DNA of 64,000 nt from the NCBI RefSeq assembly GCF_024223415.1, contig NZ_CP100500.1; one strand, given 5' to 3'. How positions within the stretch are numbered: position 1 is the first letter of the stretch; each line of letters starts with the position of its first letter. Shown piece by piece: positions 2,158-49,512 of this stretch. The DNA comes from Escherichia coli (lineage in GTDB: Bacteria > Pseudomonadota > Gammaproteobacteria > Enterobacterales > Enterobacteriaceae). The position numbers were made by a program, and so were the translations under genes. The notes under the pieces are model-generated. The model was not told the origin of the DNA. It did not search any database and saw only the letters and a program-made list of their open reading frames with translations.

Positions 2158-5100
2158 GTGCGCCTGATTATCACTTTTCTGATGGCCTGGTGCCTCAGTT
2201 GGGGGGCGTACGCCGCGACGGCCCCCGATAGCAAACAAATCTCACAAGAACTGGAGCAGGCAAAAGCGGCGAAACCCGCACAGCCGGAAGTCGTAGAGGC
2301 GCTCCAGTCTGCCTTAAATGCGCTTGAGGAACGAAAAGGTTCCCTTGAGCGCATCAAGCAATATCAAGAAGTCATTGATAATTATCCGAAACTCTCCGCT
2401 ACTCTGCGCGCACAATTAAACAACATGCGTGACGAGCCGCGCAGCGTGTCGCCGGGGATGTCTACCGACGCGCTGAATCAGGAAATTCTCCAGGTCAGCA
2501 GTCAGTTGCTGGATAAAAGCCGTCAGGCCCAGCAAGAGCAGGAGCGCGCCCGCGAGATTGCCGATTCGCTGAATCAACTGCCGCAACAGCAAACCGACGC
2601 CCGCCGTCAGTTAAACGAGATCGAGCGCCGCCTGGGAACGCTTACCGGCAATACTCCGCTCAATCAGGCACAAAATTTCGCGTTGCAGTCTGACTCCGCA
2701 CGTCTTAAGGCGCTCGTTGATGAACTGGAGCTGGCGCAGCTGTCTGCCAATAACCGCCAGGAATTAGCGCGCTTGCGCTCAGAGCTGGCGGAAAAAGAGA
2801 GCCAGCAACTGGATGCGTATTTGCAGGCCTTGCGTAATCAATTGAACAGCCAACGCCAGCTTGAGGCAGAGCGGGCGCTGGAAAGTACCGAATTACTAGC
2901 AGAAAACAGTGCCGATTTGCCGAAAGATATCGTCGCGCAATTCAAAATTAACCGCGAACTATCGGCGGCTTTGAATCAACAGGCGCAGCGGATGGATCTC
3001 GTTGCCTCGCAACAGCGTCAGGCTGCCAGCCAGACGTTACAGGTCCGGCAGGCGTTGAATACGCTGCGTGAACAGTCGCAATGGCTGGGATCGTCCAATC
3101 TGCTCGGCGAAGCGTTGCGGGCGCAGGTGGCACGGCTGCCGGAAATGCCGAAACCACAACAGCTTGATACCGAAATGGCGCAGTTGCGTGTGCAACGGTT
3201 ACGTTATGAGGATCTGCTTAATAAACAGCCGCTGCTACGGCAAATTCATCAGGCCGACGGTCAGCCGCTGACTGCCGAGCAAAACCGTATTCTGGAAGCA
3301 CAGCTACGCACTCAGCGTGAGTTGCTGAACTCATTGTTGCAGGGTGGCGACACGCTACTGCTGGAACTGACCAAGCTGAAAGTCTCCAACGGGCAACTGG
3401 AAGATGCGCTGAAAGAAGTGAACGAAGCGACGCACCGCTATCTGTTCTGGACCTCTGACGTGCGCCCGATGACCATCGCCTGGCCGCTGGAAATCGCCCA
3501 GGATCTGCGTCGTCTCATTTCGCTGGACACCTTCAGTCAGTTGGGCAAAGCCAGTGTGATGATGCTGACCAGCAAAGAGACGATTTTGCCGCTGTTTGGC
3601 GCGTTGATTCTGGTCGGTTGCAGTATTTACTCGCGCCGCTATTTTACCCGTTTTCTTGAACGTTCGGCGGCGAAAGTCGGTAAAGTGACTCAGGATCACT
3701 TCTGGCTGACGTTACGCACTCTTTTCTGGTCGATTCTCGTCGCGTCACCGCTGCCGGTGCTGTGGATGACGCTGGGTTACGGCTTGCGCGAGGCGTGGCC
3801 TTATCCGCTGGCGGTCGCGATTGGCGATGGTGTAACGGCCACCGTGCCGCTGCTGTGGGTAGTGATGATTTGCGCCACCTTTGCCCGCCCGAACGGCTTG
3901 TTTATCGCTCATTTTGGCTGGCCGCGCGAACGTGTTTCTCGTGGGATGCGCTACTACCTGATGAGCATCGGGCTTATTGTGCCACTGATTATGGCGCTGA
4001 TGATGTTCGATAACCTCGACGACCGCGAATTTTCCGGTTCGCTGGGACGGCTTTGCTTTATCCTCATTTGCGGTGCGCTGGCGGTGGTCACCCTCAGCCT
4101 GAAAAAGGCCGGGATCCCGCTGTATCTCAACAAAGAGGGCAGCGGCGACAACATTACCAACCATATGCTGTGGAACATGATGATTGGCGCGCCACTGGTT
4201 GCCATTCTGGCGTCGGCGGTGGGTTATCTGGCAACGGCGCAGGCACTGTTAGCGAGGCTTGAAACCTCGGTTGCCATCTGGTTCCTGCTACTGGTGGTTT
4301 ATCACGTTATCCGCCGCTGGATGCTGATCCAACGACGCAGGCTGGCGTTTGACCGGGCGAAGCATCGCCGGGCAGAGATGTTAGCGCAACGTGCGCGTGG
4401 CGAAGAGGAAGCACATCATCACAGTAGCCCGGAAGGGGCAATTGAAGTCGATGAAAGCGAAGTCGATCTCGATGCCATCAGTGCGCAGTCCTTGCGGCTG
4501 GTGCGCTCAATTTTGATGTTGATCGCCCTGCTTTCGGTCATTGTGCTGTGGTCAGAAATCCATTCCGCTTTCGGCTTCCTCGAAAATATTTCGCTGTGGG
4601 ATGTCACCTCCACGGTACAGGGCGTAGAAAGTCTGGAGCCGATTACCCTCGGTGCGGTGCTGATTGCCATTCTGGTGTTTATCATCACCACGCAGCTGGT
4701 GCGCAATCTGCCCGCGCTGCTGGAACTGGCGATTTTGCAGCACCTGGATTTAACGCCGGGTACCGGCTACGCCATCACCACCATCACCAAATATCTGCTG
4801 ATGCTGATTGGCGGGCTGGTCGGCTTCTCGATGATTGGTATTGAGTGGTCGAAATTGCAGTGGCTGGTCGCCGCGCTCGGTGTTGGTCTCGGTTTTGGTT
4901 TGCAGGAAATTTTCGCCAACTTTATCTCTGGCCTGATCATCCTGTTCGAAAAACCGATTCGCATTGGCGATACGGTAACGATCCGCGATCTTACTGGTAG
5001 CGTGACAAAAATTAACACCCGCGCCACCACCATCAGCGACTGGGACCGTAAAGAGATAATCGTGCCGAACAAGGCGTTTATTACCGAGCAGTTTATCAAC

Positions 5101-5481
5101 TGGTCGCTCTCTGACTCGGTCACGCGCGTGGTGTTGACGATTCCGGCCCCTGCCGATGCCAACAGTGAAGAAGTGACGGAAATCCTGCTCACCGCAGCGC
5201 GTCGCTGCTCGCTGGTGATCGACAACCCGGCACCGGAAGTCTTCCTGGTGGATCTGCAACAGGGGATTCAGATTTTCGAGCTGCGTATTTACGCCGCTGA
5301 GATGGGTCACCGTATGCCGCTACGCCATGAGATCCACCAGCTGATTCTGGCTGGCTTCCATGCCCACGGTATCGATATGCCATTCCCGCCCTTCCAGATG
5401 CGTCTGGAAAGCCTCAACGGTAAACAAACGGGGAGAACGCTGACGTCTGCGGGCAAAGGTCGTCAGGCGGGAAGTTTGTAA
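2158..5481 (+). CDS. mscM: Miniconductance mechanosensitive channel MscM (YjeP)
   Basis: 1107-aa ORF: signal peptide, long coiled-coil periplasmic region rich in Q/E/R, multiple TM helices and MscS-like C-terminal domain; GTG start. Confidence 0.9.
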   Translation: MRLIITFLMAWCLSWGAYAATAPDSKQISQELEQAKAAKPAQPEVVEALQSALNALEERKGSLERIKQYQEVIDNYPKLSATLRAQLNNMRDEPRSVSPGMSTDALNQEILQVSSQLLDKSRQAQQEQERAREIADSLNQLPQQQTDARRQLNEIERRLGTLTGNTPLNQAQNFALQSDSARLKALVDELELAQLSANNRQELARLRSELAEKESQQLDAYLQALRNQLNSQRQLEAERALESTELLAENSADLPKDIVAQFKINRELSAALNQQAQRMDLVASQQRQAASQTLQVRQALNTLREQSQWLGSSNLLGEALRAQVARLPEMPKPQQLDTEMAQLRVQRLRYEDLLNKQPLLRQIHQADGQPLTAEQNRILEAQLRTQRELLNSLLQGGDTLLLELTKLKVSNGQLEDALKEVNEATHRYLFWTSDVRPMTIAWPLEIAQDLRRLISLDTFSQLGKASVMMLTSKETILPLFGALILVGCSIYSRRYFTRFLERSAAKVGKVTQDHFWLTLRTLFWSILVASPLPVLWMTLGYGLREAWPYPLAVAIGDGVTATVPLLWVVMICATFARPNGLFIAHFGWPRERVSRGMRYYLMSIGLIVPLIMALMMFDNLDDREFSGSLGRLCFILICGALAVVTLSLKKAGIPLYLNKEGSGDNITNHMLWNMMIGAPLVAILASAVGYLATAQALLARLETSVAIWFLLLVVYHVIRRWMLIQRRRLAFDRAKHRRAEMLAQRARGEEEAHHHSSPEGAIEVDESEVDLDAISAQSLRLVRSILMLIALLSVIVLWSEIHSAFGFLENISLWDVTSTVQGVESLEPITLGAVLIAILVFIITTQLVRNLPALLELAILQHLDLTPGTGYAITTITKYLLMLIGGLVGFSMIGIEWSKLQWLVAALGVGLGFGLQEIFANFISGLIILFEKPIRIGDTVTIRDLTGSVTKINTRATTISDWDRKEIIVPNKAFITEQFINWSLSDSVTRVVLTIPAPADANSEEVTEILLTAARRCSLVIDNPAPEVFLVDLQQGIQIFELRIYAAEMGHRMPLRHEIHQLILAGFHAHGIDMPFPPFQMRLESLNGKQTGRTLTSAGKGRQAGSL

Positions 5482-5631
5482 TGCATGAAGCTGCCAAATG
5501 ATGTCAACGTGGCTCATTTAGCAGCTTAACATCATCTTCAGTTATCACCGGCCCTGGAGAGTATCATCCATACGCATTACTTCCTGACAACTCATCGCCG
5601 GAGAGACGATGAGTTGCAGGATTTCATATGA

Positions 5632-7134
5632 TCAGTCGAGAGCTAACTCAGGTTTATTCGCCATGCGACTGCAATAGTTCTGGTAAATCGCCATCGCTAA
5701 CAGCGAGAAGAAGACAGGGCCGCCAATCATCCACAATGTGCTGTCCCAGTCTCCGGCTTCAACCACAGGCTGAATGATGGTGAAGACGTTCGCAAATGTC
5801 ACCACCAGTACGACAACCACTGTCGCAATCATTGCCGACAAATGCGTTTTGAAAATCACAAATGGTCTGTCGAGATCCTGACGTGCTTTAAAGAATGGGA
5901 AAGCCAGCGCGAGGAACAGGTAAGGAAGCGTCATAGACACGTTCGCCATCAGCGTCAGCTTGTTAAAGAACGCCGATGCGGTACCGCCACCAAACGAAAC
6001 CAGCAGGATGAAGACAGTAACCAACCCGCACTGCATCCACATGGCGATAGACGGCATCCCCATCGCATTCAGGCGCGTCATCGGTTCCGGCCACAACGCT
6101 TTCGGCGTCCCCTGGATGATGGCTTTCAGCGGTGAATAGCAAAGCGTAAAGAACGCACCGGTATAAGCGAGGAACATCGAAAGTCCGGTAATACGCGCAA
6201 ACCATACGCCCAGCGACAATGACGCTTCAGGTGACAAATGCAGTGCGTTACCCAGCGTCACCCCGAGGCTCTTCATCAGCACATAGGTAATATTGCCAAG
6301 GTTAACGGAACCATTACTTAATACCTGCTGCCAGTTTGTGCTGACGCCCCATAAAAATATTGCCAGCGAATAACCGATTGAAATAACAATAGCGGCAAAA
6401 ACAATACCTTTGGCAAAGTTCTTTTCTGGATTTTCCGTTTTATCGACCAGACCACCAACCGCTTCAATTCCGCCATAGGCAAAAATAGCAAATACCACAA
6501 ACGATAGCATTGCCAGACCGGACTGATAACCCGGGTTCGGCGATGCAAGGAAATTAATATCCTGCGCGAAATGCCCACCATTTAATAACAAAATAGTAAT
6601 GCTTACTAACAGCAATACTAAATTCAGACACATTACTGCAATACCGCCCACCGCAGTAATGCGGGCAATTTTATTAATCCCCTTAGAAGCAACGACGGTG
6701 ACCAGAATCATCCATGCCACTGCCAGCAGACCAACCACCTGCGTAGGCTCCAGTCCGGCAATACGCCAGTGCTGGGTCATGTCGCTACCATAGAGGAATG
6801 TTGAGAACGGTACCCAAACTTTCGCGGAGGTACTCACCATCCAGATGATATAAGAGGAAAACCACATAAACGTACCAATGAAGGCAAAACGTGGTCCGAC
6901 ACTATTATTCATCCAGGAATAGATACCACCTTCTTCTTTGCGATAAGCAGCTCCCATTTCAGCCATCATTAAGGCGAATGGAATAAAGAATAACAATGCA
7001 GAAAATATATAAAAGGGAATCGCACTATAACCCATTAAGTAATAAGCCGATGGGCTATTGGCAAATCCAAATACGGAAGTAAAGATCATCAATATGAGTC
7101 CTATCAGACTCATCTTTTTTATCGTGTGAGGCAT
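5632..7134 (-). CDS. yjeM: Inner-membrane amino acid/polyamine transporter family protein YjeM
   Basis: ORF 5632..7176 trimmed to internal Met (MPHTIKKMSLIG...) giving 500 aa; polytopic membrane protein; conserved K-12 neighbour. Confidence 0.85.
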   Translation of the reverse strand: MPHTIKKMSLIGLILMIFTSVFGFANSPSAYYLMGYSAIPFYIFSALLFFIPFALMMAEMGAAYRKEEGGIYSWMNNSVGPRFAFIGTFMWFSSYIIWMVSTSAKVWVPFSTFLYGSDMTQHWRIAGLEPTQVVGLLAVAWMILVTVVASKGINKIARITAVGGIAVMCLNLVLLLVSITILLLNGGHFAQDINFLASPNPGYQSGLAMLSFVVFAIFAYGGIEAVGGLVDKTENPEKNFAKGIVFAAIVISIGYSLAIFLWGVSTNWQQVLSNGSVNLGNITYVLMKSLGVTLGNALHLSPEASLSLGVWFARITGLSMFLAYTGAFFTLCYSPLKAIIQGTPKALWPEPMTRLNAMGMPSIAMWMQCGLVTVFILLVSFGGGTASAFFNKLTLMANVSMTLPYLFLALAFPFFKARQDLDRPFVIFKTHLSAMIATVVVVLVVTFANVFTIIQPVVEAGDWDSTLWMIGGPVFFSLLAMAIYQNYCSRMANKPELALD

Positions 7135-28296: not shown

Positions 28297-28372
28297 GCCC
28301 GGATAGCTCAGTCGGTAGAGCAGGGGATTGAAAATCCCCGTGTCCTTGGTTCGATTCCGAGTCCGGGCACCA
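28297..28372 (+). tRNA. pheU: tRNA-Phe (anticodon GAA), pheU-type
   Basis: 76-nt cloverleaf GCCCGGATAGCTCAGTCGGTAGAGCAGGGGATTGAAAATCCCC...GGTTCGATTCCGAGTCCGGGCACCA with encoded CCA; sits where pheU lies relative to yjdC. Confidence 0.97.
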
Positions 28373-28569: not shown

Positions 28570-29832
28570 ATGGCACTGACTGACGCAAAAATCCGGGCTG
28601 CAAAGCACACTGACAAGGCTTATAAACTCACTGACGGGGCTGGCATGTTCCTGCTGGTACATCCTAATGGTTCCCGTTACTGGCGTCTCCGTTATCGCAT
28701 TCTGGGTAAGGAGAAAACTCTGGCACTTGGTGTATACCCGGAGGTTTCTCTCTCCGAAGCTCGTACAAAACGGGATGAGGCCCGAAAACTGATTTCGGAG
28801 GGGATTGACCCTTGCGAACAGAAAAGAGCTAAAAAAGTAGTCCCTGATTTACAACTCTCTTTTGAACATATTGCACGACGCTGGCATGCCAGTAATAAAC
28901 AATGGGCACAATCACACAGCGATAAGGTACTCAAAAGCCTCGAAACACACGTTTTCCCCTTTATCGGCAACCGGAACATCACAACACTCAATACCCCGGA
29001 CCTGCTTATCCCTGTTCGTGCTGCAGAAGCTAAACAAATTTATGAAATCGCCAGTCGTCTGCAGCAAAGAATATCTGCTGTAATGCGTTATGCCGTACAG
29101 TCTGGCATCATCAGATATAATCCTGCTCTGGATATGGCTGGCGCATTGACTACGGTAAAACGCCAGCATCGCCCCGCTCTTGATCTTTCTCGCCTGCCTG
29201 AACTTTTGTCGCGTATTGGCAGTTACAAGGGGCAACCTGTCACCCAGCTTGCCGTTATGCTGAATTTACTGGTTTTTATTCGTTCCAGTGAACTCAGATA
29301 CGCCCGCTGGTCTGAAATTGATATTGACAATGCCATGTGGACTATTCCAGCCGAACGCGAACCCCTGCCAGGCGTAAAATTCTCACACCGGGGCTCCAAG
29401 ATGCGAACACCACATCTTGTGCCACTCAGCAAACAGGCTGTAGCCATACTGACAGAACTACAGACATGGGCTGGTGAAAATGGTCTGATCTTTACGGGAG
29501 CACATGACCCGCGTAAACCAATCAGTGAAAATACTGTAAATAAAGCCCTGAGGGTGATGGGGTATGACACAACCCAGGATGTCTGTGGCCATGGATTCCG
29601 GGCGATGGCGTGCAGTGCATTGATTGAATCAGGTTTGTGGTCCCGCGATGCTGTGGAACGTCAGATGAGCCATCAGGAGCGTAATGGTGTACGTGCTGCG
29701 TATATCCATAAAGCAGAACATCTGGAAGAACGTCGACTGATGCTACAGTGGTGGGCAGATTTTCTGGATGCGAACAGAGATAAGGGTATCAGCCCGTTTG
29801 AATATGCAAAGATTAACAATCCATTAAAATAG
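28570..29832 (+). CDS. int: P4-type tyrosine integrase (island integrase)
   Basis: 420 aa; N-terminal MALTDAKIRAAK...YWRLRYR typical of P4-like integrases; C-terminal catalytic region with R...HGFR...Y; first gene 3' of tRNA-Phe. Confidence 0.9.
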   Translation: MALTDAKIRAAKHTDKAYKLTDGAGMFLLVHPNGSRYWRLRYRILGKEKTLALGVYPEVSLSEARTKRDEARKLISEGIDPCEQKRAKKVVPDLQLSFEHIARRWHASNKQWAQSHSDKVLKSLETHVFPFIGNRNITTLNTPDLLIPVRAAEAKQIYEIASRLQQRISAVMRYAVQSGIIRYNPALDMAGALTTVKRQHRPALDLSRLPELLSRIGSYKGQPVTQLAVMLNLLVFIRSSELRYARWSEIDIDNAMWTIPAEREPLPGVKFSHRGSKMRTPHLVPLSKQAVAILTELQTWAGENGLIFTGAHDPRKPISENTVNKALRVMGYDTTQDVCGHGFRAMACSALIESGLWSRDAVERQMSHQERNGVRAAYIHKAEHLEERRLMLQWWADFLDANRDKGISPFEYAKINNPLK

Positions 29833-30097: not shown

Positions 30098-31003
30098 CTA
30101 TATTTCCAGACATCTGTTATCACTTAACCCATTACAGGCCCGCTGCCGCAGATATTCCCGTGGCGAGCGATAACCCAACGCACTATGCGGATGCCATTCG
30201 TTATAATGCTCGAACGCCTCTGCAAGGTTCTTTGCTGCCGTTAACCCGTCTGGTTTGGGCATGACACTGATGTAGTCACGCTTTATCGTTTTCACGAAGC
30301 TCTCTGCTATGCCGTTACTCTCCGGACTCCGCACCGCCGTGTTCTTCGGTTCAAGCCCCAACATCCGGGCAAACTGCCGTGTTTCATTAGCCCGGTAGCA
30401 TGAACCATTATCCGTCAGCCACTCTACTGGAGACGCCGGAAGCTCGTTGCCGAAGCGGCGTTCCACCGCTCCTGGCATGACGTCCTGTACTGTTTCACTG
30501 TTGAAGCCGCCCGTAGTGACCGCCCAGTGCAGTGCCTCACGGTCACAGCAGTCCAGCGCGAACGTGACTCGCAGTTTTTCTCCGTTATCACAGCGGAACT
30601 CGAACCCGTCAGAGCACCATCGCTGATTACTTTCTTTCACAGCCACTCTGCCGGTATGTGCCCGTTTCGATGGCGGTACAGCGGTTTTTCGCTCAAGCAA
30701 CAGCGCATTCTGGCGCATGATCCGGTAAATACGTTTGGCATTGATCGCAGGCATACCATCAAGTTCTGTTTGTCTGCGAAGCAGCGCCCATACCCGACAA
30801 TAACCATATGTGGGTAGCTCTCCGATAACATGGTGTATACGGCGAAGCACATCCGTATCATCCGTGTGACGGCTGCGGCGGCCGTCCTTCCAGTCATCGG
30901 CTCGTCTGAGAATGACGTGCAACTGCGCACGCGACACCCGGAGACAACGGCTGACGAAGCTTACTCCCCATCCCCGGGCAATAAGGGCGCGTGCGCTATC
31001 CAC
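30098..31003 (-). CDS. insD: IS2 transposase InsD (OrfB)
   Basis: 301 aa, near-identical to recalled IS2 InsD ([34 protein letters not shown]...). Confidence 0.92.
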
Positions 31004-31326
31004 TTTTTTGCTCGCCCATATTCAACGGCTTCTTTAAGGAGTTCATTTTCCATCGTTTTTTTGCCGAGCAGACGCTGGAGTTCTTTAATCTGCTTCATGG
31101 CGGCAGCAAGTTCAGAGGCAGGAACGACCTGTTCTCCGGCAGCCACAGCAGTAAGACTTCCCTCCTGGTATTGCTTACGCCAGAGAAATAGCTGGCTGGC
31201 TGCCACACCATGTTGCCGGGCAACAAGGGAGACCGTCATTCCCGGTTCAAAGCTCTGCTGAACGATAGCGATCTTTTCCTGTGTAGTACGCCGTCTGCGT
31301 TTCTCCGGCCCTAAGACATCAATCAT
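30961..31326 (-). CDS. insC: IS2 InsC (OrfA, HTH regulator)
   Basis: ORF trimmed to Met ([26 protein letters not shown]...), 121 aa; overlaps insD as expected for frameshift fusion. Confidence 0.9.
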
Positions 31327-31543
31327 CTGTTCTCCAATGACTAGTCTAAAAACTAGTATTAAGACTATCACTTATTTAAGTGATATTGGTTGTCTGGAGA
31401 TTCAGGGGGCCAGTCTAAAATGTATTCACTGTTATGAAATCAATAGTTCTGACGTACTGTTGAATGTGCTTGCGTTCTGAACCTTGTACAACCAGTACAT
31501 TTGATACCGAATTATAAACAAAACATTGCATCCAACTTTTTCA

Positions 31544-31619: not shown

Positions 31620-34600
31620 ATGGATGAAAATGCTTTAGGGTTTGCCTCATACTGGCGCAACTCGCTTGCGGATGCTGAGTCAGGAAAGGGCAGTTTTGAA
31701 CGGAAAGACGCCAAAAATTTCACTCATTGGCATGGGATAGCGGCGGGACGTCTTGACGAAGCGATTGTCAGTAAATTTTTTAAGGGAGAAAAAGACGATG
31801 TCGAAACGGTCGATGTCATCTTGCGCCCAAAAGTTTATTTCCGGTTACTGCAGCATGGTAAGGACCGTTCTGCAGGTGCGCCTGATATTGTTACCCCGAT
31901 AGTGACGCCAGCCTTGCTAAGCCGTGAGGGTTTTTTATATCCGACGCCAGCGACCTCCATTCCCAGAGACCTGCTTGAACCTTTGCCAAAAGGAGCATTT
32001 TCGATTGGTGAGATTGGGCAGTATGACAAATACAAGACGACCCATACCACGTTCTCTATCAACTTTGATGACAGCGTTGATAAGACTGCCGAAACGCATG
32101 AAGAACGGGAAGCACGATATGCCGCCTTGCAGCAGGAGTGGCGTCAATATCTGTATGACTCAGAGAGGCTACTGAAGAGCGTTGCCAGCGACTGGATTGA
32201 AAAACCTGAGCAATATGAACTCGCTGAGCACGGTTATATTGTTAAAACGGCGCAATCTGGCGGTGCCAGTTTCCATATCCTTTCTCTTTATGATCACCTG
32301 CTTGTTTGCAATAAGGATGTGCCGCTCTTCAATCGATTCGCCTCGCGAGAGGTTCATGCTGCAGAGTCTTTGCTGGCCCCTGGAGCAAAATTCAGCGACA
32401 GGCTTGGACACTCCGGAGATAAGTTTCCGCTGGCAAAGGCTCAGCGCGATGCCTTAAGCCATTTTCTGGATGCTAAACATGGCGATATCCTTGCTGTTAA
32501 TGGCCCTCCTGGAACCGGAAAAACCACGCTGGTGCTTTCTATCATCGCCACGCAGTGGGCCAGAGCGGCTCTCGAAAAATCTGAGCCTCCGGTTATTATC
32601 GCGACTTCAACGAATAACCAGGCTGTAACGAACATTATTGAGGCATTCGGGAAAGACTTTTCGCAAGGTTCAGGTGCGATGGCCGGGCGATGGTTGCCAG
32701 AGCTGAAAAGCTTCGGCGCTTATTTTCCCTCAAGCAGCCGTAAAGCTGAAGCAGCCAAAAAATATCAAACTGAAGATTTCTTCAACCAGGTTGAGTCAAA
32801 AGAGTATGTAGAAGATGCACTGCTGTTTTATCTGGAAAAGGCTAAGGCAGCCTTTCCTGAAAAAGAGTGTTCATCCCCTGAAAAGGTCATTGAACTCCTG
32901 CATGGTCAGTTGGCAGCAAAATCCGAGCAACTGATAAGACTGAACGCAACATGGCAAACGTTAAGCCAGATTCGGGCTGCGCGTGAGCTTATTGCTAATG
33001 ATATTGAGCAATATCTCAATAATTTAAATAAATTACTTTCCGGACAAGAACAAAAAATCACTCTACTGAAGAGTGCTAAAACGGAATGGAAAAAATATCG
33101 CGCCGGTGAATCACTGATCTATTCATTATTTTCCTGGCTTCCGGCGGTTCGCAGTAAGCGACAGTACCAAATACAGCTGTTTCTCGAAGATAAATTAGGT
33201 GCGCTGATTGCAGGAAATCAATGGTCTGATCCTGAAACTATCGAAAGTAATATTGATGGGCTGCTCAATTCCGCTGAGCGCGAGCAAACAACATACCGGC
33301 AGCAGATTGACTCCGCCCATGAAATCATTCTTAAAGAACAGCAGGCGGTTCAGGAGTGGCAGAGACTGGCTCTTGATTTAGGGTATGAGGGCGACGAGGA
33401 ACTGAGCTTCTCACAGGCCGATGAACTGGCTGATACGCAGATTCGCTTCCCTGCATTTTTACTGACGACTCACTACTGGGAAGGTCGTTGGCTGATGGAT
33501 ATGGCCAGCATTGATGATCTGCAGGAAGAGAAGAAGAAAAAAGGCGCTAAAGGGGTAACCGCCCGTTGGCAACGTCGAATGAAACTCACTCCATGTGTGG
33601 TGATGACATGCTATATGCTGCCCGGCAATATGCAGATAAGTGAGCACAAAGGACAGCGTAAATTCGAGAAAAGTTATTTGTATGATTTTGCCGATTTACT
33701 CATTGTCGATGAAGCCGGGCAGGTGCTTCCTGAAGTGGCTGCTGCCTCGTTTGCATTAGCTAAGAAGGCATTAGTGATTGGCGATACGGAGCAGATCCCG
33801 CCAATATGGAGTATTGCTCCTGCGATTGATATCGGTAACATGCTGGCGGAAAAAATTCTGTCTGGCAGTACGCAAGAAGAGATTACCGAGAAATATACGG
33901 CAATCGCAGACCTTGGTAAAAGTGCCGCATCTGGCAGCGTTATGAAAATAGCGCAGTTTGCTTCGCGCTATCAATATGATCCCGAACTGGCTCGTGGTAT
34001 GTACCTATATGAACACCGCCGGTGCTACGACAATATTATTGGATACTGTAATACGCTCTGCTATCACGGTAAGTTGTTGCCTAAAAGAGGGCGTGAAGAG
34101 AGCAATTTAATGCCCGCAATGGGGTATCTCCATATTGATGGTAAAGGAGAGCTGGCAAGTAGTGGAAGTCGATATAATTTGCTTGAGGCTGAAACGATAG
34201 CGGTCTGGTTGGCAGAGAACCAGCAAAATATTGAAGCGCATTACGGTAAATCGCTTCATGAAGTTGTCGGTATTGTGACGCCTTTTAGCGCTCAGGTATC
34301 CACTATCAAACAGGTGCTGGGCAAACAAGGTATCAGTACAGGCACGAATGAAAAGTCGCTCACAGTGGGCACCGTGCACTCTCTTCAGGGAGCGGAAAGA
34401 GCGATTGTGATATTCTCGCCAGTCTATTCAAAACATGAAGACGGCGGGTTTATTGATAGCGATAACAGCATGCTGAATGTTGCAGTCTCCCGTGCGAAGG
34501 ACAGTTTTCTGGTCTTCGGCGATATGGACCTGTTTGAGGTCCAGCCAGCCTCATCGCCACGGGGATTACTGGCAAAATACCTCTTTGAGTCAGAGAAGAA

Positions 34601-35135
34601 TGCGCTCTCTTTTGATTATAAAGAGCGTAAGGATTTAAAAACCGCCGGGACCAAAATCTACACACTTCATGGTGTGGAGCAACATGATAATTTCCTGAAT
34701 CAGACATTTGAAAATACCAGTAAACACATCACGATAGTTTCTCCATGGCTGACCTGGCAAAGGCTGGAGCAAACCGGTTTTCTTGATTCCATGATTGCGG
34801 CGTGTTCACGTGGAATTAACGTCACGATAGTCACTGACAGAAGCTACAACACTGAACATAATGATTTTGAGAAGCGAAAAGAGAAGCAGCAGAACTTTAA
34901 AGCGGCGCTGGAGAAACTGAATGCGCTGGGTATTGCTACAAAGCTGGTAAACCGTGTTCATAGCAAAATTGTTATTGGTGATGATGGTTTGCTGTGCGTG
35001 GGATCGTTCAACTGGTTTAGTGCGACACGGGAAGCGCGATATGAACGATACGATACATCAATGGTTTATTGCGGTGATAACCTGAAGGGTGAGATTGAGG
35101 CTATTTATAATAGTCTTGAGAGGCGGCAGGTTTAG
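31620..35135 (+). CDS. Superfamily-1 (Upf1/DNA2-like) helicase fused to C-terminal PLD-family (HKD) nuclease domain; candidate single-gene defence protein
   Basis: 1171 aa. Walker [10 protein letters not shown] (nt 32502-32528, aa 295-303); Walker B/motif II DEAGQ (nt 33708-33722, aa 697-701); SF1 motifs [18 protein letters not shown] and [16 protein letters not shown]; C-terminal HSKIVIGDD...GSFNWF = HxK(x4)D(x6)GSxN PLD signature (nt 34959-35030). About 290-aa N-terminal region and about 390-aa insert between Walker A and B have no motif I recognise. Confidence 0.75.
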
Positions 35136-35243: not shown

Positions 35244-36743
35244 TTATCTTCTGTCCGGAAGAATCAGAGGCTGTGGTTTCAGACTGTCTGCCGGTACATT
35301 CCTGTCTCCGTTAAAAACAATAACGGGTTCATTATCTTCGTCTGTCAGCGGATTGAATGGCGGTATATTTTCAGTACGAATGCCGGTCAGCCACTGAAAA
35401 ATACCTGCGAAATGACGGGCACTGATTTTTCTGCTGACGGACTGATGAGACGTGATGTCACTGGCGGTAATAATCAGGGGAACGCTGTAGCCTCCTTGTA
35501 TATGGCCATCATGATGAACAGGATTAGCACTGTCGCTGACCGACAGACCATGGTCAGAAAAGTAAAGCATGGCAAAATGACGGGAGTGCCGGCGAAGGAT
35601 ACCATCAAGCTGACCGAGAAAGTTATCCAGTTTACTGATGCTGGCGAGGTAACAGGCAATCTTTCGGGGATACTGCTCCAGGTAATGATTCGGCCAGGAG
35701 TTAAGTCGGTCACACGGATTCGGATGAGAGCCAATCATGTGCAGGAATATCACCTTCGGAGAGGATTTATCCGCCAGTGCACGTTCTGTTTCCTGTAACA
35801 ACAACATGTCATCCGTTTTACGGGAAGCAAAGCTGCCTTTCTTGAGGAAAACGGTATGCTCCGCATCAGAAGCAATAACAGAGATGCGTGTATCATGCTC
35901 CCCCAGTTTTCCCTGATTGGATATCCACCATGTGCTGTATCCTGCTTTTGCTGCCAGCGCCACCACGTTGTTGCCGGAGTCAGGGTTCTGCTCATAGTCA
36001 TAAATCAATGTCCGGCTCAGGGAAGGTACGGTACTGGCTGCTGCCGATGTATAGCCGTCAATAAATAAACCGGGAGCCGTATTCAGCCATGGTGTGGTTG
36101 GCACGGGATAGCCATATACCGACATATAATCCCTGCGCACACTCTCACCAGTAACGATAACAATCGTGTCATACAACGGTGTTCCCGGCAGGATTTTCCA
36201 GTTGTCAGCCCCGTGCTGACTCAGTTGTTTATAACGCTGCATTTCACGCAATGTGTCAGTTGTTCCCACAACAATTCCTTTAACCATCCGCAACGGCCAG
36301 CTGTTTACAGAGCATAATACGAACAGCAGCAGTGCCAGCCAGTTACGGTGACCGCGGTGGTGTGTCCGCCAGAAAATCACCATGAATACCAGAATCGCGG
36401 CACTGACCAGAAAATGATAAACAGGAATCATCCCGGTAAACTCTGCAGCCTCATCAGCCGTGGTCTGCAGCAACGCGACAATAAAACTGTTGTTGATTTT
36501 ACCGTACGTCATACCCGCAGGCGCATACAGTGCACAACAGAACAGAAATAACAGCGTTGTAATGGATGTGAGGGTATTTCTGTGTGCAAGGAGCAGAAGG
36601 AGAAACAGAAGCAGCACATTTCCTGTGGCATTCTTCTCAGTGTATCCGCATGCAATTGTGATTATCACAGAAATAACAAAAAAGAATAAAAACAATAAAA
36701 TCCGGGGTGTGTCGCCCGGACAAAACAGTTTTCTGATATTCAT
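35244..36743 (-). CDS. Sulfatase-family inner-membrane protein, probable phosphoethanolamine transferase (YhbX/YbiP/OpgE-like)
   Basis: 499 aa; N-terminal multi-TM region then periplasmic domain with alkaline-phosphatase-superfamily motifs (VTGESVRRDY, HMIGSHPNPCD, YFSDHG); AT-rich flanks. Confidence 0.6.
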   Translation of the reverse strand: MNIRKLFCPGDTPRILLFLFFFVISVIITIACGYTEKNATGNVLLLFLLLLLAHRNTLTSITTLLFLFCCALYAPAGMTYGKINNSFIVALLQTTADEAAEFTGMIPVYHFLVSAAILVFMVIFWRTHHRGHRNWLALLLFVLCSVNSWPLRMVKGIVVGTTDTLREMQRYKQLSQHGADNWKILPGTPLYDTIVIVTGESVRRDYMSVYGYPVPTTPWLNTAPGLFIDGYTSAAASTVPSLSRTLIYDYEQNPDSGNNVVALAAKAGYSTWWISNQGKLGEHDTRISVIASDAEHTVFLKKGSFASRKTDDMLLLQETERALADKSSPKVIFLHMIGSHPNPCDRLNSWPNHYLEQYPRKIACYLASISKLDNFLGQLDGILRRHSRHFAMLYFSDHGLSVSDSANPVHHDGHIQGGYSVPLIITASDITSHQSVSRKISARHFAGIFQWLTGIRTENIPPFNPLTDEDNEPVIVFNGDRNVPADSLKPQPLILPDRR

Positions 36744-36924
36744 CGGAGTATATCGACAACATTATTATGAAGAGAACAGGATAATAAAAATCAGAAATTA
36801 TCTGTAAAACAGATAACAGACAACCCTGCAGCAATAGACTGCAGGGTGTTTCTGTTTAATTGCAGAAGATATACAATTATATTAATTACAGAATATTCGT
36901 GATTATCTCTCAGGAACAGTGTTG

Positions 36925-37665
36925 TCAGAAGTTATAAGTCACACCAAGCATGATGTCATGACTTTTAACATCAACTTCTGACTTATATTTATCGCCCCAC
37001 TCGTCCTTGTAACTCACACTGCTGTCACCTGCATCAAGATAGCGATAGCTGAGGTCCAGAGCGATATCCGGGGTTACGTCATAGCGGACACCCGCGCCAA
37101 GGTTCCATGCGAAGTTGTCAGCAGAGCCTGAACGTGACAACGATTCGCGACCACTGCTTCCGTACTCATAATCCCAGGTACTGATACCGGTTGTTTTCTG
37201 GTGAATTCTGGCGTAGCCAATCCCTGCAGATATCCAAGGTGTGAATGCGCTGTCATTCCGGAAGTCATAGTACGCATTCAGCATTAGTGTGTTGACTGAC
37301 ACCTCATTCTTCAGGTCATCACGCCAGTAACCACCTGACCAACTGTCTTTATCTACGTTATACTTCGAATCAGCTTTTCCACGAGCGTAAAACTCCAGTT
37401 CTGTACGAACCGGAATACTGAACTGCGGATAAAAATCATAACCAGCCGCGATACCACCACTGAATACCGTATCATGGTCATCGCCGCCTTTATACTTTGA
37501 CGTTTCTTCCTCATCTCCTGACAGGAAACGCTGGTCTGAAAGTGACACCACAGAGGTACCGGCTTTACCGGTCAGATAAAAACCGCTTTTACCTTCCTCA
37601 GCACCTGCATTTGCTGCAAATACACAGGCTGCGGCCACCACTGAAACAGCAAAAACCTTTTTCAT
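36925..37665 (-). CDS. Outer-membrane beta-barrel protein, MipA/OmpV-like
   Basis: 246 aa; signal peptide MKKVFAVSVVAAACVFAANA, alternating amphipathic strands, C-terminal ...GVTYNF with terminal Phe; resembles MipA family but unverified. Confidence 0.5.
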   Translation of the reverse strand: MKKVFAVSVVAAACVFAANAGAEEGKSGFYLTGKAGTSVVSLSDQRFLSGDEEETSKYKGGDDHDTVFSGGIAAGYDFYPQFSIPVRTELEFYARGKADSKYNVDKDSWSGGYWRDDLKNEVSVNTLMLNAYYDFRNDSAFTPWISAGIGYARIHQKTTGISTWDYEYGSSGRESLSRSGSADNFAWNLGAGVRYDVTPDIALDLSYRYLDAGDSSVSYKDEWGDKYKSEVDVKSHDIMLGVTYNF

Positions 37666-37741
37666 TTCAATTATCTCCGTTATTGCTCCGTTGCTGCAAG
37701 CAGTACTCAGTGCATTTTAAAACCCGCCATGCGATAGCCTC

Positions 37742-37782
37742 AATCGAATAAAATCGATCGAATCGATCGATGATATCGATCG
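37742..37782. repeat. Short tandem/palindromic ATCGATCG repeat tract
   Basis: caatcgaataaaatcgatcgaatcgatcgatgatatcgatcg: three or four copies of atcgatcg immediately upstream of the MipA-like gene. Confidence 0.6.
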
Positions 37783-38991: not shown

Positions 38992-40971
38992 TCAGGTGCC
39001 GATTATGCCGCCGTCGGCTTTTACGATAACGACAGTTGAGGAGCGCGGACGACCAGCCTTATCGCCGTCAGGCCAGCTTGATACTGCCGTCGGATGCTGC
39101 GGATCGCTAAGCCCTTCGCTTGGCTCGCCAGGGTGCTGGATGTTAATAAACAGCGTCCGGTTATCCGGAGTGAACGCGATGCCGGTGATTTCGCAGCCGC
39201 GCGGGCCGGTCAGGAAGCGGCGGAACTCATTGGTACCGGGGATCGTCGCCACCATCTGGTTGTTGCCCATGCCTTTGTAATCTTTAATATTTATGGTTGA
39301 TGACGACACGTCGGTCTGGATCCATAGCACGCCGCGGTGATCGAAGCTCAGGCCATCGGCGCTGCCGAATTCCGCACCCTTCATGCTGCCTTTGGTTTCC
39401 GGTTTGTCTGTATCGGTGCGACCGCCCATCACAAGAATATCCCAGGCAAACTGCAGCGCGGTCGGGTCACCGTTATGCTCCAACCAGTGAATGATGTGGC
39501 CGTAAACGTTTTTGGCGCGCGGGTTGGCCGCATCCACTGGCGCTTTTCCTTCCGTACCGCGATCGCTGTTGTTGGTGAGCGTGCAGTAAACGCTGCCGGC
39601 GTGATATGGATCGACCGCAATCCACTCCGGGCGGTCCATTTTAGTGGCCCCCACGGCGTCTGCCGCCAGACGGGTTTTAATCAACAGGTCGCCCTGGTTT
39701 TCAAACCCTTTACTGGCGTCGAGCCCATTTTGTCCGAACACCAGCGGTAGCCACTCGCCTTTGCCGTCGTCGTTAAATTTCGCCACGTACAGAGTGCCTT
39801 TTTCCAGCAGGTGCATGTTGGCTTTGCGATCCTGCGGGTTGAATTTTCCTTCCGAGACAAATTTATATATGTATTCGAATTTCTGGTCATCGCCCATATA
39901 GACCACAACGCGGTTATCCGGGGCAATTGTCACCGCTGCGCCTTCGTGTTTGATGCGACCAAGCGCGGTGTGCTTGCGCGGCACTGAATGCGGATCGTAT
40001 GGATCGATTTCCACCACCCAGCCGAAGCGGTTCGGCTCGTTCGGCGTGGCGTCGACGCTGAACCTTTTATCCACTTCGTTCCAGCGGTAAGAGTCGTCGC
40101 TCCCGCTGATACCGTAACGTTTTTCCAGCGGGTTCATCTCTGCTTTTTTTACGAAAATATCGGACCAGTTCTCTTCACACGTCAGATAGGTGCCCCACGG
40201 CGTAAATCCGTTGGCACAGTTCTGCATGGTGCCGAGAATGATTTCGCCTTTCGGATCGTCAACTGTTTGCATCAGTGGGTTATGCAGCGCCGGACCGGTG
40301 ATTTTCATCGGCGTGTTAACGGTGATGCGGCGTGCGAACGATGACGGGCGCACCACTTCCCAGCCCAGGGGCACTTTTTTTACTTCAATGACCGACACGC
40401 CCATCGCGTTCTGGCCTTTAAGAGCTTTATCGGCGCTCCAGTTGGCATCGCCATCTTTAAACAGTAGACCGTTATCGATGTATTCATGGTTTATGGCAAG
40501 CAGGCCGTGATCGGAGCTGTTCCCGCCCTGCGGCAGGCTAAACCACGCCATGCCGTCGTGGTGCATCCCGGCCTGCGCCGCCTGTTCTTCCGTGGTGTTG
40601 CTACCGTCGGTTTTAAAAACCGGCAGATTTCCGGCAATCCCGGTGGCGTCGCCCCATTTGTAGAAGGGCTTCGCGATGTATCCTTCCGGCACGATAACGG
40701 TATCTTCCGTGGAAACCGGCAGGCTGGTGAAACCGAGCGTCGTCGCTTTGCCGAGGTTACCGCTTGCTTTGGAGACCACTTTCGCCAGCGCGTTTTCCTG
40801 TTTCAGCAGAAATGGGAACGCTGCCGCGGCACCGGCGACCGTGCCTGCCTGTAACAGACGGCGGCGTGACAAATAGACTTCCGCCACCTGCGAAAACGCG
40901 CGGTTATCGCTCGGGTTACTGATTTCTTCACTATGCTCACGTTTGAATAAAGTTTTTAACGGTCTGCCCAT
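38992..40971 (-). CDS. Tat-exported PhoX-family alkaline phosphatase (DUF839-like)
   Basis: 659 aa; twin-arginine signal SRRRLLQAGTVAGAAAAFPFL; length and composition as recalled for PhoX family; not part of K-12 core. Confidence 0.6.
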   Translation of the reverse strand: MGRPLKTLFKREHSEEISNPSDNRAFSQVAEVYLSRRRLLQAGTVAGAAAAFPFLLKQENALAKVVSKASGNLGKATTLGFTSLPVSTEDTVIVPEGYIAKPFYKWGDATGIAGNLPVFKTDGSNTTEEQAAQAGMHHDGMAWFSLPQGGNSSDHGLLAINHEYIDNGLLFKDGDANWSADKALKGQNAMGVSVIEVKKVPLGWEVVRPSSFARRITVNTPMKITGPALHNPLMQTVDDPKGEIILGTMQNCANGFTPWGTYLTCEENWSDIFVKKAEMNPLEKRYGISGSDDSYRWNEVDKRFSVDATPNEPNRFGWVVEIDPYDPHSVPRKHTALGRIKHEGAAVTIAPDNRVVVYMGDDQKFEYIYKFVSEGKFNPQDRKANMHLLEKGTLYVAKFNDDGKGEWLPLVFGQNGLDASKGFENQGDLLIKTRLAADAVGATKMDRPEWIAVDPYHAGSVYCTLTNNSDRGTEGKAPVDAANPRAKNVYGHIIHWLEHNGDPTALQFAWDILVMGGRTDTDKPETKGSMKGAEFGSADGLSFDHRGVLWIQTDVSSSTINIKDYKGMGNNQMVATIPGTNEFRRFLTGPRGCEITGIAFTPDNRTLFINIQHPGEPSEGLSDPQHPTAVSSWPDGDKAGRPRSSTVVIVKADGGIIGT

Positions 40972-47424: not shown

Positions 47425-49512
47425 TCAGAACTGATAGTTCAGCGACATCCAGTAATTTCTCTCAGGTATCACATAACCCGTTGTCGATGCCCCCGTCTGG
47501 AAGTAATCACCCGCATAAAGCGTACCACTGCCGGCACGATACAGACTTACGTCACTGTAATCCTTGTTAAGCACATTATTCACCGCTGCATTCAGCATCA
47601 GTGCATCCGTCACTTTCCACGACATGCCCGCATCCAGTACCGTCCAGGCTTTCAGATATTCACCTTTCTCATCATACACTTTCTTCTGTACAGCTGAGAG
47701 TGACGAATAATTCTGGGTGAAACGTGGCGTTTTCCCGCGGTAACGGGCACCCAGCCATGATGTCACCTCTTCAGTAATCTGCCAGTTCAGTTTCGCATTC
47801 ACCATATGCTCAGGGGTGTAACTCAGTGGTGCACCTTTATTATCCCCATCCCGTTGTTCACTCTGCGTCCAGGTATAATTCAGAGACAGAGTCACATCCT
47901 CTGACAACAGAGGCAGTGTGCCGGCAAATTCCACGCCCTGAGTCCTGGCCTTTCCGCTGTTTGTGTAGCTGCGGGTATTATCATCAATGGAATAAGATAC
48001 GATCTTGTTGGAGAATTCTGTCATAAAGCCCGTGATATTGGCGTTCAGACCGGCATGATTATCGTAATACACGCCCGCTTCATAACTGACACTCTCCTCC
48101 GGCTTCAGGTCCGGGTTACCGAGAAGATTCGTACGCCCCTGACCGGACACACCGCTGATCCCCTTATGTAACTGCCCCATGCTGGGCGCCTTATATCCCG
48201 TGGTCACCCCACCTTTCAGCGTCCACGCATCAGTCACATCCCAGACCATATATGCCCGGGGACTGAAGTGTCCTCCGAACACCTCATAGCGTTCATAGCG
48301 GCTACCCGCAGTCAGTGCAAATGCATCCGTGATATACCACTCATCCTCAACAAATGCCGACCAGCTTTTCTGACGGAAGGTTTCACCAGTACTGGCGAGA
48401 ACAACCCCGTCTTTCATGGAGGAGTTCTGATACTCACCACCGACGGTAACCTTGTGTGATTCCCCCAGAGGTGCAAACAGTAATGAGCTCAGGATAAGAT
48501 TCGACTCCTTAAGCTCCCTCGGCTGGCCGGCAAGCCCCCATTTATCACGCTGCAGTACGCTACGTACAAGCTGACGGCCTTTATTTTCCGTCTCATTCCA
48601 GTTCAGGGATGACTTCCAGGCTCCGAAGGTGAATGTATGATCATAGCCTGCTGAAATTTTATTACGCTCATAGCGCAGGGTGCGATCATAACCGCCCGTC
48701 AGACTGCCCAGCTGGCCATCTCGGTTATCATAACGCTGCCGGGCGATATCCATATCAATCCAGAGTACATCCTTGTCCGTCGCTTTCCAGTCAAGACGAC
48801 CACCTGCATTATAATTCTGTGATTCCGTGGGATAAGGGATACGCGTAGCTGAGGTGTCGCTCAGTGATGTGACCGATGAGCCCTGACGCTGCTGTGTGCT
48901 GCCACGTACCTGAAGGCTGAGTGAATCATCCACAAGGGGACCGCTGCTCCAGAAATTAAACTGGCTGCTGTTCCCCCATTTGTTACTTTCCTGCAGGTTC
49001 AGCCCGGCATTAACCGAAGAGCGCCATTTGTCTGCATTCTTTTTGGTGATGATATTCACCACGCCCCCCATGGCATCAGAGCCGTACAGAGTGGACATGG
49101 GGCCCCTGATAATCTCAATACGTTCGATGGCGGCCAGAGGTGGCATAAAACCCGTATTCATGGCAGCATAACCGTTTGGGGTTACGTCACTGCTCCCGCC
49201 CTGACGGACACCATCGATCAGTATCAGCGTATAACTGGCAGGCATTCCGCGGATGCTGATTTCCAGCCCACCTGTTTTACCCGTACCGCTTTCAACATCC
49301 ACCCCCTCTACGGATCTCAGTGCCTCCCCCAGATCATGATACTGGCTGGATCGCAAATCCTCCTGGCTGATCACTGAAACACTCGCAGCTGCACTGGTTA
49401 ATTTTTTTTCATAGCCAGACGCCGTGACTACCATCACATCTTCCGCAGCCATACTGCTGACTGAAAACCCGAGACAAGGGATGGCTACTGAAGCCAGAGT
49501 GGTTACTCGCAT
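47425..49512 (-). CDS. iha: TonB-dependent outer-membrane siderophore receptor/adhesin, IrgA homologue (Iha-like)
   Basis: 695 aa; signal peptide, TonB box region (DVMVVTAS), plug motif IERIEIIRGPMSTLYGSDAMGGVVNIITKK, C-terminal ...WMSLNYQF; closely resembles recalled IrgA/Iha. Confidence 0.7.
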   Translation of the reverse strand: MRVTTLASVAIPCLGFSVSSMAAEDVMVVTASGYEKKLTSAAASVSVISQEDLRSSQYHDLGEALRSVEGVDVESGTGKTGGLEISIRGMPASYTLILIDGVRQGGSSDVTPNGYAAMNTGFMPPLAAIERIEIIRGPMSTLYGSDAMGGVVNIITKKNADKWRSSVNAGLNLQESNKWGNSSQFNFWSSGPLVDDSLSLQVRGSTQQRQGSSVTSLSDTSATRIPYPTESQNYNAGGRLDWKATDKDVLWIDMDIARQRYDNRDGQLGSLTGGYDRTLRYERNKISAGYDHTFTFGAWKSSLNWNETENKGRQLVRSVLQRDKWGLAGQPRELKESNLILSSLLFAPLGESHKVTVGGEYQNSSMKDGVVLASTGETFRQKSWSAFVEDEWYITDAFALTAGSRYERYEVFGGHFSPRAYMVWDVTDAWTLKGGVTTGYKAPSMGQLHKGISGVSGQGRTNLLGNPDLKPEESVSYEAGVYYDNHAGLNANITGFMTEFSNKIVSYSIDDNTRSYTNSGKARTQGVEFAGTLPLLSEDVTLSLNYTWTQSEQRDGDNKGAPLSYTPEHMVNAKLNWQITEEVTSWLGARYRGKTPRFTQNYSSLSAVQKKVYDEKGEYLKAWTVLDAGMSWKVTDALMLNAAVNNVLNKDYSDVSLYRAGSGTLYAGDYFQTGASTTGYVIPERNYWMSLNYQF

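Follow-up and report, generated by a model that had tools for sequence, protein, structure and literature searches.

The stretch of DNA analysed here (the window) comprises 64,000 nucleotides of Escherichia coli contig NZ_CP100500.1 (assembly GCF_024223415.1). The region of interest, positions 35244–37665 and the sequence just upstream, is the integrase-proximal 'surface module' of the E. coli pheV island, in which hek, the gene for an outer-membrane adhesin, is followed by a yjgX-type phosphoethanolamine (pEtN) transferase gene. Two co-oriented genes had been proposed in an earlier reading made from the letters alone (the sequence-only reading); both open reading frames (ORFs) were confirmed, at 36925–37665 (246 amino acids) and 35244–36743 (499 amino acids). 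They lie on the minus strand, 181 bp apart, and PGAP gives them the same annotation in hundreds of E. coli genomes. The features of the module, in the direction of transcription, are as follows.

37744–37781, minus strand: three-GATC box, a predicted Dam-sensitive site for a LysR-type regulator (OxyR or HdfR), from GATC clustering, spacing and half-site scoring
37714–37743, minus strand: promoter-like site for hek (TTGAGG, 18-nucleotide spacer, TAAAAT), from a consensus scan; directly abuts the three-GATC box
36925–37665, minus strand: hek-type gene for a Hra-family outer-membrane adhesin, invasin and autoagglutinin of 246 amino acids, from the ORF, Pfam and nucleotide identity
36823–36847, minus strand: G+C-rich hairpin (ACCCTGCAG...CTGCAGGGT) followed by a T-rich run, in the hek–transferase spacer, from a terminator scan
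36781–36808, minus strand: promoter-like site (TTTACA, 16-nucleotide spacer, TATTAT; 10 of 12 positions) 5' of the transferase gene, the best-scoring match in the region
35244–36743, minus strand: YjgX/OpgE-like pEtN transferase of 499 amino acids, from Pfam, the OpgE alignment, the catalytic residues and an AlphaFold2 (AF2) model

The best joint explanation, to which we give a probability of roughly 0.72, is a module of hek and an OpgE-like transferase gene with an upstream promoter that is probably under LysR-type and Dam control. The pair itself is common, already annotated and ordinary: Hek is a characterised adhesin of extraintestinal pathogenic E. coli, and thousands of genomes carry an annotation of the transferase, which papers on the pheV, pheU and selC islands already mention. 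The conserved three-GATC box is the one new lead of the region.

The 246-residue protein was matched over its full length by the Pfam family OMP_b-brl (E = 7.6e-22) and more weakly by OmpA-membrane, Opacity and OmpW. It begins with the signal-peptide-like segment MKKVFAVSVVAAACVFAANAGA and ends in TYNF, with phenylalanine as the terminal residue. It had been labelled a MipA/OmpV-like outer-membrane β-barrel; the fold class stood and the family did not, since the MipA profile (PF06629) was absent from the 11 Pfam hits obtained down to E ≤ 10, and MipA/OmpV identity was rejected on that search. The closest solved relative by sequence is Neisseria Opa60. In nucleotide comparisons its gene came closest to RS218 hek (about 97% identity), followed by hra1 (92%), hes (90%), tia (78%) and hra2 (77%), the references being machine-read text, with small errors, from the supplement of the paper on the LAA island, which defines the Hra family as Hra1, Hra2, Tia, Hek and Hes (PMC5539235). 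The protein shares 63% of its residues with PGAP-annotated Tia and 90–94% with other hek/hra1-type alleles, and in other E. coli genomes the equivalent slot beside this transferase carries the label 'invasion outer membrane protein Tia'. Length class, signal peptide, TYNF end, OMP_b-brl fold family and a tRNA-linked island are common to the window protein and RS218 Hek, whose family also includes Hra1, Hes, Tia, Hra2 and Salmonella PagN. The window gene differs from RS218 hek in being an allele, not an identical sequence; moreover, the annotated upstream ATG of RS218 hek reads ACG in the window, so the window start is the MKK codon.

Judged by sequence, then, the barrel protein is Hek, a characterised adhesin/invasin of the Hra family, and because it is Hek and not MipA/OmpV, half of what had been supposed to be 'envelope-modification cargo' is on this identification really a virulence adhesin. 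Hek is an eight-stranded barrel that binds heparan-sulfate proteoglycan and by itself confers heat-resistant haemagglutination and autoaggregation on K-12 (PMC2553418); Hes is likewise active without a partner in HB101 (PMC5539235). Across the family, heat-resistant haemagglutination, autoaggregation and heparan-sulfate-dependent adhesion are known for Hek, Hra1, Hes and Tia, and Hek, Hes, Hra1 and PagN each gave full phenotypes when expressed singly in K-12 strains. If the literature on Hek applies to this allele, its surface loops would attach to heparan-sulfate proteoglycan and to one another, so causing haemagglutination, autoaggregation, adhesion and invasion.

The second protein had been described as a membrane-anchored enzyme of the sulfatase superfamily, and this held: an N-terminal helical membrane domain (residues ~12–177), weakly matched by EptA_B_N (9.6e-5), precedes a periplasmic catalytic domain of sulfatase fold (Pfam Sulfatase, 1.6e-36, residues 193–446). 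In the AF2 model (pLDDT 85, pTM 0.78) the membrane domain is helical with two short bridging helices and is followed by an α/β domain; the helices span residues 12–31, 39–55, 57–80, 85–93, 96–104, 108–127, 135–146 and 149–177, and hydropathy peaks were seen as well. The enzyme had also been said to lack the motifs of EptA and MCR. This was not borne out, all six catalytic residues (E200, T238, H340, D397, H398 and H411) being present and invariant in an alignment of 14 homologues that included OpgE and YhbX. HMMER alignment to MCR-1 and EptC matched the GE, S-T, G-x-H and S-D-H-G motifs to E200, T238, H340 and D397/H398; the MCR-1 counterparts we take to be E246, T285, H395, D465 and H466, with H478 for H411. 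T238 is the predicted nucleophile and E200, H340, D397, H398 and H411 are the predicted metal and acid–base residues.

The Pfam family carries the name 'Sulfatase' and arylsulfatases occur among the fold matches (~1e-9), two points in favour of a true sulfatase or an unrelated hydrolase. The formylglycine motif C/S-x-P-x-R is missing, however, and an invariant threonine stands at the nucleophile position (AAS-T238-VPS); a multi-helix membrane domain at the N-terminus, as this protein has, is typical of pEtN transferases. When the model was searched against the Protein Data Bank (PDB) with Foldseek, the best folds were the EcEptC periplasmic domain (1.5e-18), full-length MCR-1 and full-length NmEptA, the last two aligning over 545–562 columns, with the true sulfatases about nine orders of magnitude behind. 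A true sulfatase was rejected on the nucleophile, the missing motif and the fold ranking, and we regard its probability as negligible. The gene is under purifying selection (ratio of nonsynonymous to synonymous substitution rates, dN/dS, 0.12–0.17). From the observed fold and catalytic residues, and with the chemistry carried over from EptA, MCR-1 and EptC, we infer that the 499-residue protein is an intact pEtN transferase. Held in the inner membrane, it would first load Thr238 of its periplasmic domain, at a zinc site (E200, D397 and H398, with H340 and H411), with pEtN drawn from phosphatidylethanolamine and would then pass this group to a periplasmic or envelope glycan.

Which glycan this might be was approached through the relatives of the enzyme. 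OpgE (YbiP), the K-12 pEtN transferase for osmoregulated periplasmic glucans (OPGs), aligned at 31% identity over residues 20–478 (239 bits, E = 7e-77) and is the only characterised protein to align over both the membrane and the catalytic domains; its catalytic residues are the same as those of the window enzyme. K-12 YhbX (105 bits) aligned over the catalytic domain only. The catalytic domain was also matched by NCBIfam models of CptA, lipid A pEtN transferase, EptA, EptB and nine MCR families, in every case far below the cut-off: CptA scored 107.8 bits against 404, EptA 56.3 against 561 and 37.9 against 660, EptB 49.4 against 493, and the MCR families 18–34 against 1075–1250. Orthology to EptA, EptB, CptA or MCR was rejected on these widely missed curated whole-protein cut-offs. 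EptC/CptA, EptA, EptB and MCR-1 to MCR-13 resemble the enzyme in their multi-helix membrane domain and sulfatase-type domain with a threonine nucleophile and zinc ligands; they differ in length (540–577 against 499 residues) and share 15–22% identity in structural alignment. Nor is the enzyme an orthologue of OpgE, given 31% identity and a gene in the pheV island where opgE lies at the ompX core locus; it is an island-borne paralogue of 499 residues against the 527 of OpgE. By sequence it belongs to the OpgE/YjgX branch, with OpgE as the closest characterised relative. The enzyme is thus intact, selected, very common and island-borne, and is not mcr-like by any curated model, which matters for resistance screening.

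The acceptor had been proposed to be 'LPS or glucans', a fair list of candidates in which the glucan enzyme is now the best characterised relative. Because OpgE is the only full-length characterised relative, a glucan of the OPG type is tentatively the most likely acceptor, at odds nearer one in three than even. Several points weigh against that choice and against the joint explanation as a whole. The acceptor is not readable from sequence, and 31% identity to OpgE is paralogy and not orthology. CptA/EptC gives the best profile and PDB sequence matches of the catalytic domain, and some databases name homologues 'lipid A phosphoethanolamine transferase'. The transferase gene is also frequently broken, by truncation in K-12 and S88 and by a frameshift in strain 03_3503, and is therefore dispensable. 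Our literature searches found no functional or biochemical study of YjgX-type enzymes, which is not proof that none exists.

Some of these points speak for the next likeliest acceptor, the lipopolysaccharide (LPS) core or lipid A, which we think unlikely, though it comes close behind in our ranking. The enzyme would then place pEtN on lipid A, Kdo or heptose, as EptA/MCR, EptB and EptC/CptA do, reducing the negative charge of the surface and making the cell less sensitive to polymyxin, cationic peptides or phage. Among the NCBIfam models the best are indeed CptA (5.2e-31) and lipid A pEtN transferase (5.7e-20), the EcEptC periplasmic domain is the best solved structure by both sequence and fold, NCBI itself uses the lipid A name for some homologues, and an LPS editor beside an adhesin is plausible since LPS masks adhesins of the Hra family (PagN). 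Yet the scores lie 4- to 60-fold under the curated cut-offs with matches confined to the catalytic domain, the membrane domain, which helps to form the substrate site in EptA-type enzymes, aligns with OpgE only, and the database names are automatic. Deletion of yjgX in K-12 was a false positive in a defensin screen and had no defensin phenotype (PMC4808223); this says little, because the K-12 copy is a pseudogene. Modification of LPS by this enzyme is accordingly graded as doubtful, and an OPG-type glucan is kept as the leading candidate.

That K-12 pseudogene, on the KpLE2 element at leuX, is 91% identical to the window gene over its 3' 1.19 kb and also lies just inside a P4-type integrase; it has lost its N-terminus, is frameshifted and has no adhesin gene adjacent, whereas the window copy is intact and selected. 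A further resemblance was seen at the OpgE locus of K-12, where opgE adjoins ompX, the gene of a small eight-stranded outer-membrane protein (locus L005 of our comparison set, 4451–6598; other loci are numbered likewise). The two genes are convergent there, in contrast to the co-oriented hek and transferase genes, and Hek and OmpX have only a 25-residue barrel motif in common, on which ground a common origin of the two pairs was rejected; the parallel is probably a coincidence. Separately, a 47–52%-identical homologue was found on DNA of IncI-type conjugative plasmids (L006 5001–6536; L007; L017) in a cluster of 1,955 sequences. It carries the NCBI name 'lipid A phosphoethanolamine transferase', adjoins a DUF2569 gene and hok/gef loci, has no adhesin beside it and is not a recognised mcr family.

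The linkage between the adhesin and transferase genes was then considered. The co-oriented order, adhesin then transferase, was found next to P4-type integrases at pheV, pheU and other sites in E. coli and Salmonella. The settings include pheV and pheU loci with hek, hra1 or tia alleles, loci adjoining pap genes, LAA-type islands in which the pair lies behind SisA, a Salmonella locus with a GTPase gene alongside, and metagenome contigs down to 56–58% identity of the transferase and 48–54% of the adhesin. No adhesin neighbour was ever seen for transferase homologues at or below 52% identity (IncI-type plasmid, Erwinia, Enterobacter lignolyticus, Pantoea and Aquitalea), and deep conservation of the pairing was rejected on this basis. 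Between the window and the tia locus (L002 6245–8665), the synonymous divergence of the adhesin genes reaches 1.36, against 0.11 for the transferase genes; one adhesin cassette has thus been swapped for another beside a nearly constant transferase and the two genes recombine independently, which implies a recombination breakpoint, predicted from these divergences to lie in or near the 181 bp spacer, and a cassette-like exchange of adhesin alleles.

These data bear on whether the transferase is a dedicated partner of the adhesin, placing pEtN on Hek or on the surrounding LPS as a requirement for display or function. Protein-modifying pEtN transferases do exist (Neisseria PptA on pilin and Campylobacter jejuni EptC on FlgG). 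Order, co-orientation and a gap of ~150–215 bp are kept in every Hra-family locus examined, the pairing persists to the low identities just given and in at least four flanking contexts, and in some strains one box and promoter head a three-gene array. Such a partnership is nevertheless improbable in our judgement: Hek, Hes, Hra1 and PagN are fully active singly in K-12, whose sole copy is the truncated pseudogene; the more distant homologues are never beside an adhesin; several strains with an intact adhesin have a truncated or frameshifted transferase; and the synonymous divergences of the two genes are as different as stated. The pair is a mobile genetic module whose coupling is genetic and not obligatory, since distant transferases occur without an adhesin and adhesins of the Hra family work alone in K-12.

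The signals between the genes bear on their expression. The spacer hairpin is conserved in the hek, tia and hra1 loci of E. coli and is likely to be a partial terminator, and the promoter-like site that follows suggests an independent promoter for the transferase gene; as the number of promoter-like sites in the region does not exceed shuffle expectation, the 10-of-12 score is weak evidence. This conserved hairpin and promoter-like site put co-transcription of hek and the transferase gene in doubt, and they count on the same side as the points listed above. In the arrangement that we propose, the transferase would be co-expressed with hek by read-through of the weak terminator and would also be served by its own promoter. 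The hek promoter-like site is conserved in its -10 element, with T-A---T invariant among alleles in the upstream-region alignment.

The box lies directly upstream of that promoter. On the minus (coding) strand it reads G-ATCGATATCATCGAT-CGATTCG-ATCGATTTTATTCGA and passes directly into the -35-like TTGAGG and the conserved -10. Its GATC sites are at -116, -103 and -94 from the hek ATG (plus-strand starts 37778, 37765 and 37756), 13 and 9 bp apart, and form the densest GATC cluster in the window. The short upstream repeat tract that had been pointed out earlier does exist, as ATCGATCG at 37753–37782. The tract alone is weakly above chance (TCGATCGAT was seen three times; shuffled sequences gave 0.61 on average and reached three in 7 of 100 cases); it is not a product of chance because it is conserved across loci. 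Thirteen loci from six enterobacterial genera have exactly this 13 and 9 bp spacing, and simple-sequence slippage was rejected on the fixed length and spacing in these loci. The same three sites head every Hra-family locus examined and are the most conserved columns of an upstream region that is otherwise ~61% identical. Relatives of the box region occur in 1,523 of 5,426 E. coli genomes. In ATCC 8739 and strain 03_3503 the box is seemingly absent and in fact lies 5' of an extra 122-residue gene that precedes the hek-type gene, which suggests from the gene order that box, 122-residue gene, adhesin and transferase form a three-gene unit under one box. The product of the extra gene (L055 3695–4063, plus strand; L019 5137–5505, minus strand) has one hydrophobic segment.

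A pattern scan of ~100,000 species genomes placed the box also in Rahnella, Yokenella, Pseudocitrobacter and two Citrobacter species, with the same flanks and -10 element, but 5' of unrelated small secreted proteins. The cargo in Citrobacter, Yokenella, Pseudocitrobacter and Rahnella consists of homologous secreted proteins of 151–154 residues with the motif WxSGWGQGVSEF, for which no NCBIfam match was obtained. In Citrobacter the box-headed gene lies just 3' of a YeeP-like GTPase gene, the slot of agn43 in K-12 CP4-44. The genes for the 151–154-residue proteins were located as follows.

L048 4469–4924, minus strand: box-headed gene
L044 4181–4645, minus strand: box-headed gene
L039, L050 and L028: further box-headed genes

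Known Dam-dependent switches offer parallels. The box aligns with the agn43 OxyR region, and the 13 bp GATC pair that brackets a 15 bp half-site (ATCG-N7-CGAT) is found in agn43 (GATC-2/3) and in gtr, an operon under OxyR and Dam control with GATC pairs 13 bp apart (PMC2909390). The upstream activating sequence (UAS) of Salmonella std has three GATC sites at -242, -229 and -220, exactly the 13 and 9 bp spacing of the hek box, and the LysR-type HdfR binds only its unmethylated DNA (PMC6735912); this comparison was made on the published GATC positions. Like hek and its neighbour, the genes controlled in agn43, P22/LT2 gtr and opvAB (all through OxyR) and in std (through HdfR) are surface adhesins or envelope modifiers. 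The box also has the sequence hallmark of Dam/LysR-type switches, namely at least two GATC sites in half-sites beside a promoter, conserved among relatives. It differs from the known switches in having only two half-sites, the second of them weak, and in being predicted from the letters alone. It abuts the -35 from upstream, unlike agn43, where the OxyR site is downstream of the transcription start. Literature searches found no report that Dam, OxyR or HdfR controls hek, hra or tia, which is not proof that the literature contains none.

The first 15-mer (half-site A) agrees with the OxyR consensus ATAGnTnnnAnCTAT at 7–8 of 10 positions across loci and at 8 of 10 in the window, where the two mismatches are those that create GATC sites. 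Natural variants with a changed GATC were found among close relatives of the window. GATC-3 is changed to GATA (ATCG to ATAG) in three sampled strains, Ecol_AZ159 (L001 22740–22790), the bovine-mastitis strain 26561 and the avian-pathogenic E. coli strain E18005; GATC-2 is changed to TATC (CGAT to CTAT) in one, WP8-S18-CRE-02 (L059). Each change would remove one Dam site and goes to the OxyR consensus base; by a post hoc count, random GATC-destroying substitutions would give this outcome about once in 144 times. All three sites are kept in the window, in strain E41 and in a strain of sequence type 38 (ST38).

The second 15-mer (half-site B) is a further point against the regulatory part of the joint explanation, agreeing with the OxyR consensus at only 4–7 of 10 positions, and a two-half-site score of similar size is reached by chance at 16 places in the window. 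Such figures fit a conserved UP-like element or binding site without epigenetic function, a site bound by HdfR in place of OxyR, or a promoter cassette alike by common descent. The std UAS, which has the same 13 and 9 bp spacing, is regulated by HdfR and can do without GATC-1. Similar flanks, with an ACGATAA motif and the -10 element, accompany the box at all its loci, so that the conservation is partly accounted for by common descent. Against these accounts, the GATC sites stand out as the most conserved columns, they persist where the downstream cargo differs, and both GATC-destroying variants go to the consensus base, with the post hoc caveat given above. Together these accounts come to a little under an even chance.

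The box is predicted here to be a Dam-sensitive site for a LysR-type regulator with bistable expression. In its full form this would be a portable OxyR/HdfR-type switch making the adhesins of the Hra family phase-variable, and the transferase with them by read-through, with the same box driving the unrelated secreted proteins of Citrobacter, Yokenella, Pseudocitrobacter and Rahnella; we put this forward tentatively, as a possibility that falls somewhat short of even odds. On the proposed mechanism, the promoter whose -35 abuts the box would drive hek (or, in some strains, the three-gene unit from the 122-residue gene onwards), and competition between Dam methylation and OxyR or HdfR would make expression bistable. 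If the box is such a switch, cells of one population would differ in their expression of Hra-family adhesins. The natural GATC-loss alleles, common among the sampled avian-pathogenic and bovine strains, would then be locked variants with a fixed state, affecting how hek, hra and tia are scored as virulence markers.

A published deletion can be reread in the light of this gene order. The 5,485 bp 'hes-sisA' deletion in the Shiga toxin-producing E. coli strain UC4224 also took out the pEtN transferase gene and part of atoS, so the reduced virulence and biofilm formation of the mutant cannot be assigned to the adhesin alone (PMC13340028). Phenotypes of UC4224 credited to the adhesin could partly stem from the transferase.

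The surroundings of the module are those of a pheV island. A partial match to the 3 kb region was found in 3,073 of 5,426 complete E. coli genomes, and a match over at least 80% of its length in 1,032. Annotated relatives show the order yqgA, pheV, P4-type integrase, 'AAA domain-containing protein', 'phosphoethanolamine transferase', 'outer membrane protein', PhoX, insertion sequence (IS) remnants and iha. In the window, the features on the pheV side are as follows.

28297–28372, plus strand: tRNA-Phe (pheV), found with ARAGORN; marks the integration end of the island
28570–29832, plus strand: P4-type tyrosine integrase (NCBIfam integrase domain); the same annotation in L001 (Ecol_AZ159) and L054 (E41)
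31620–35135, plus strand: MkoC, single-gene Mokosh type II defence protein (SF1 helicase with C-terminal PLD-like domain), PADLOC model PDLC03924

The adjoining defence gene that the sequence-only reading had noted is real. MkoC matched its PADLOC profile at 1693.5 bits over residues 1–1169 of 1171 and profile positions 1–1135 of 1136, that is, as a full-length Mokosh type II protein, and PGAP labels it just 'AAA domain-containing protein'. The same reading had suggested that the pair, placed beside this gene, could change phage-receptor or antimicrobial-peptide susceptibility. The pair might on that view be defence-island cargo, tied to Mokosh and altering phage receptors in an anti-phage locus. 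Integrase-proximal arms of islands are known hot spots for defence genes, and mkoC is convergent with the transferase gene at a distance of 108 bp. Neither Hek nor the transferase matches any PADLOC model, however, and the pair stands directly beside the integrase without MkoC at pheU, with SisA as the neighbour in LAA-type islands, a GTPase in Salmonella and pap genes elsewhere. A joint anti-phage role is without support because the linkage to MkoC is not conserved; a functional tie to Mokosh was rejected on these grounds and appears very improbable. As the pair occurs in varied contexts without it, MkoC looks like an independent insertion between integrase and pair.

Three other elements of the island were recorded. 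An IS3-family (IS2-like) element lies at 30098–31371 on the minus strand, between the pheV integrase and mkoC; an insertion at that position is present in strain E41 (L054) and not in Ecol_AZ159 (L001). On the other side of the module are genes for a PhoX-family phosphatase (38992–40971, minus strand) and an Iha-type TonB-dependent siderophore receptor/adhesin (47425–49512, minus strand; NCBIfam PRK13486, 1539 bits, above the cut-off), the two being separated by IS debris and decayed genes of an integrative and conjugative element (ICE).

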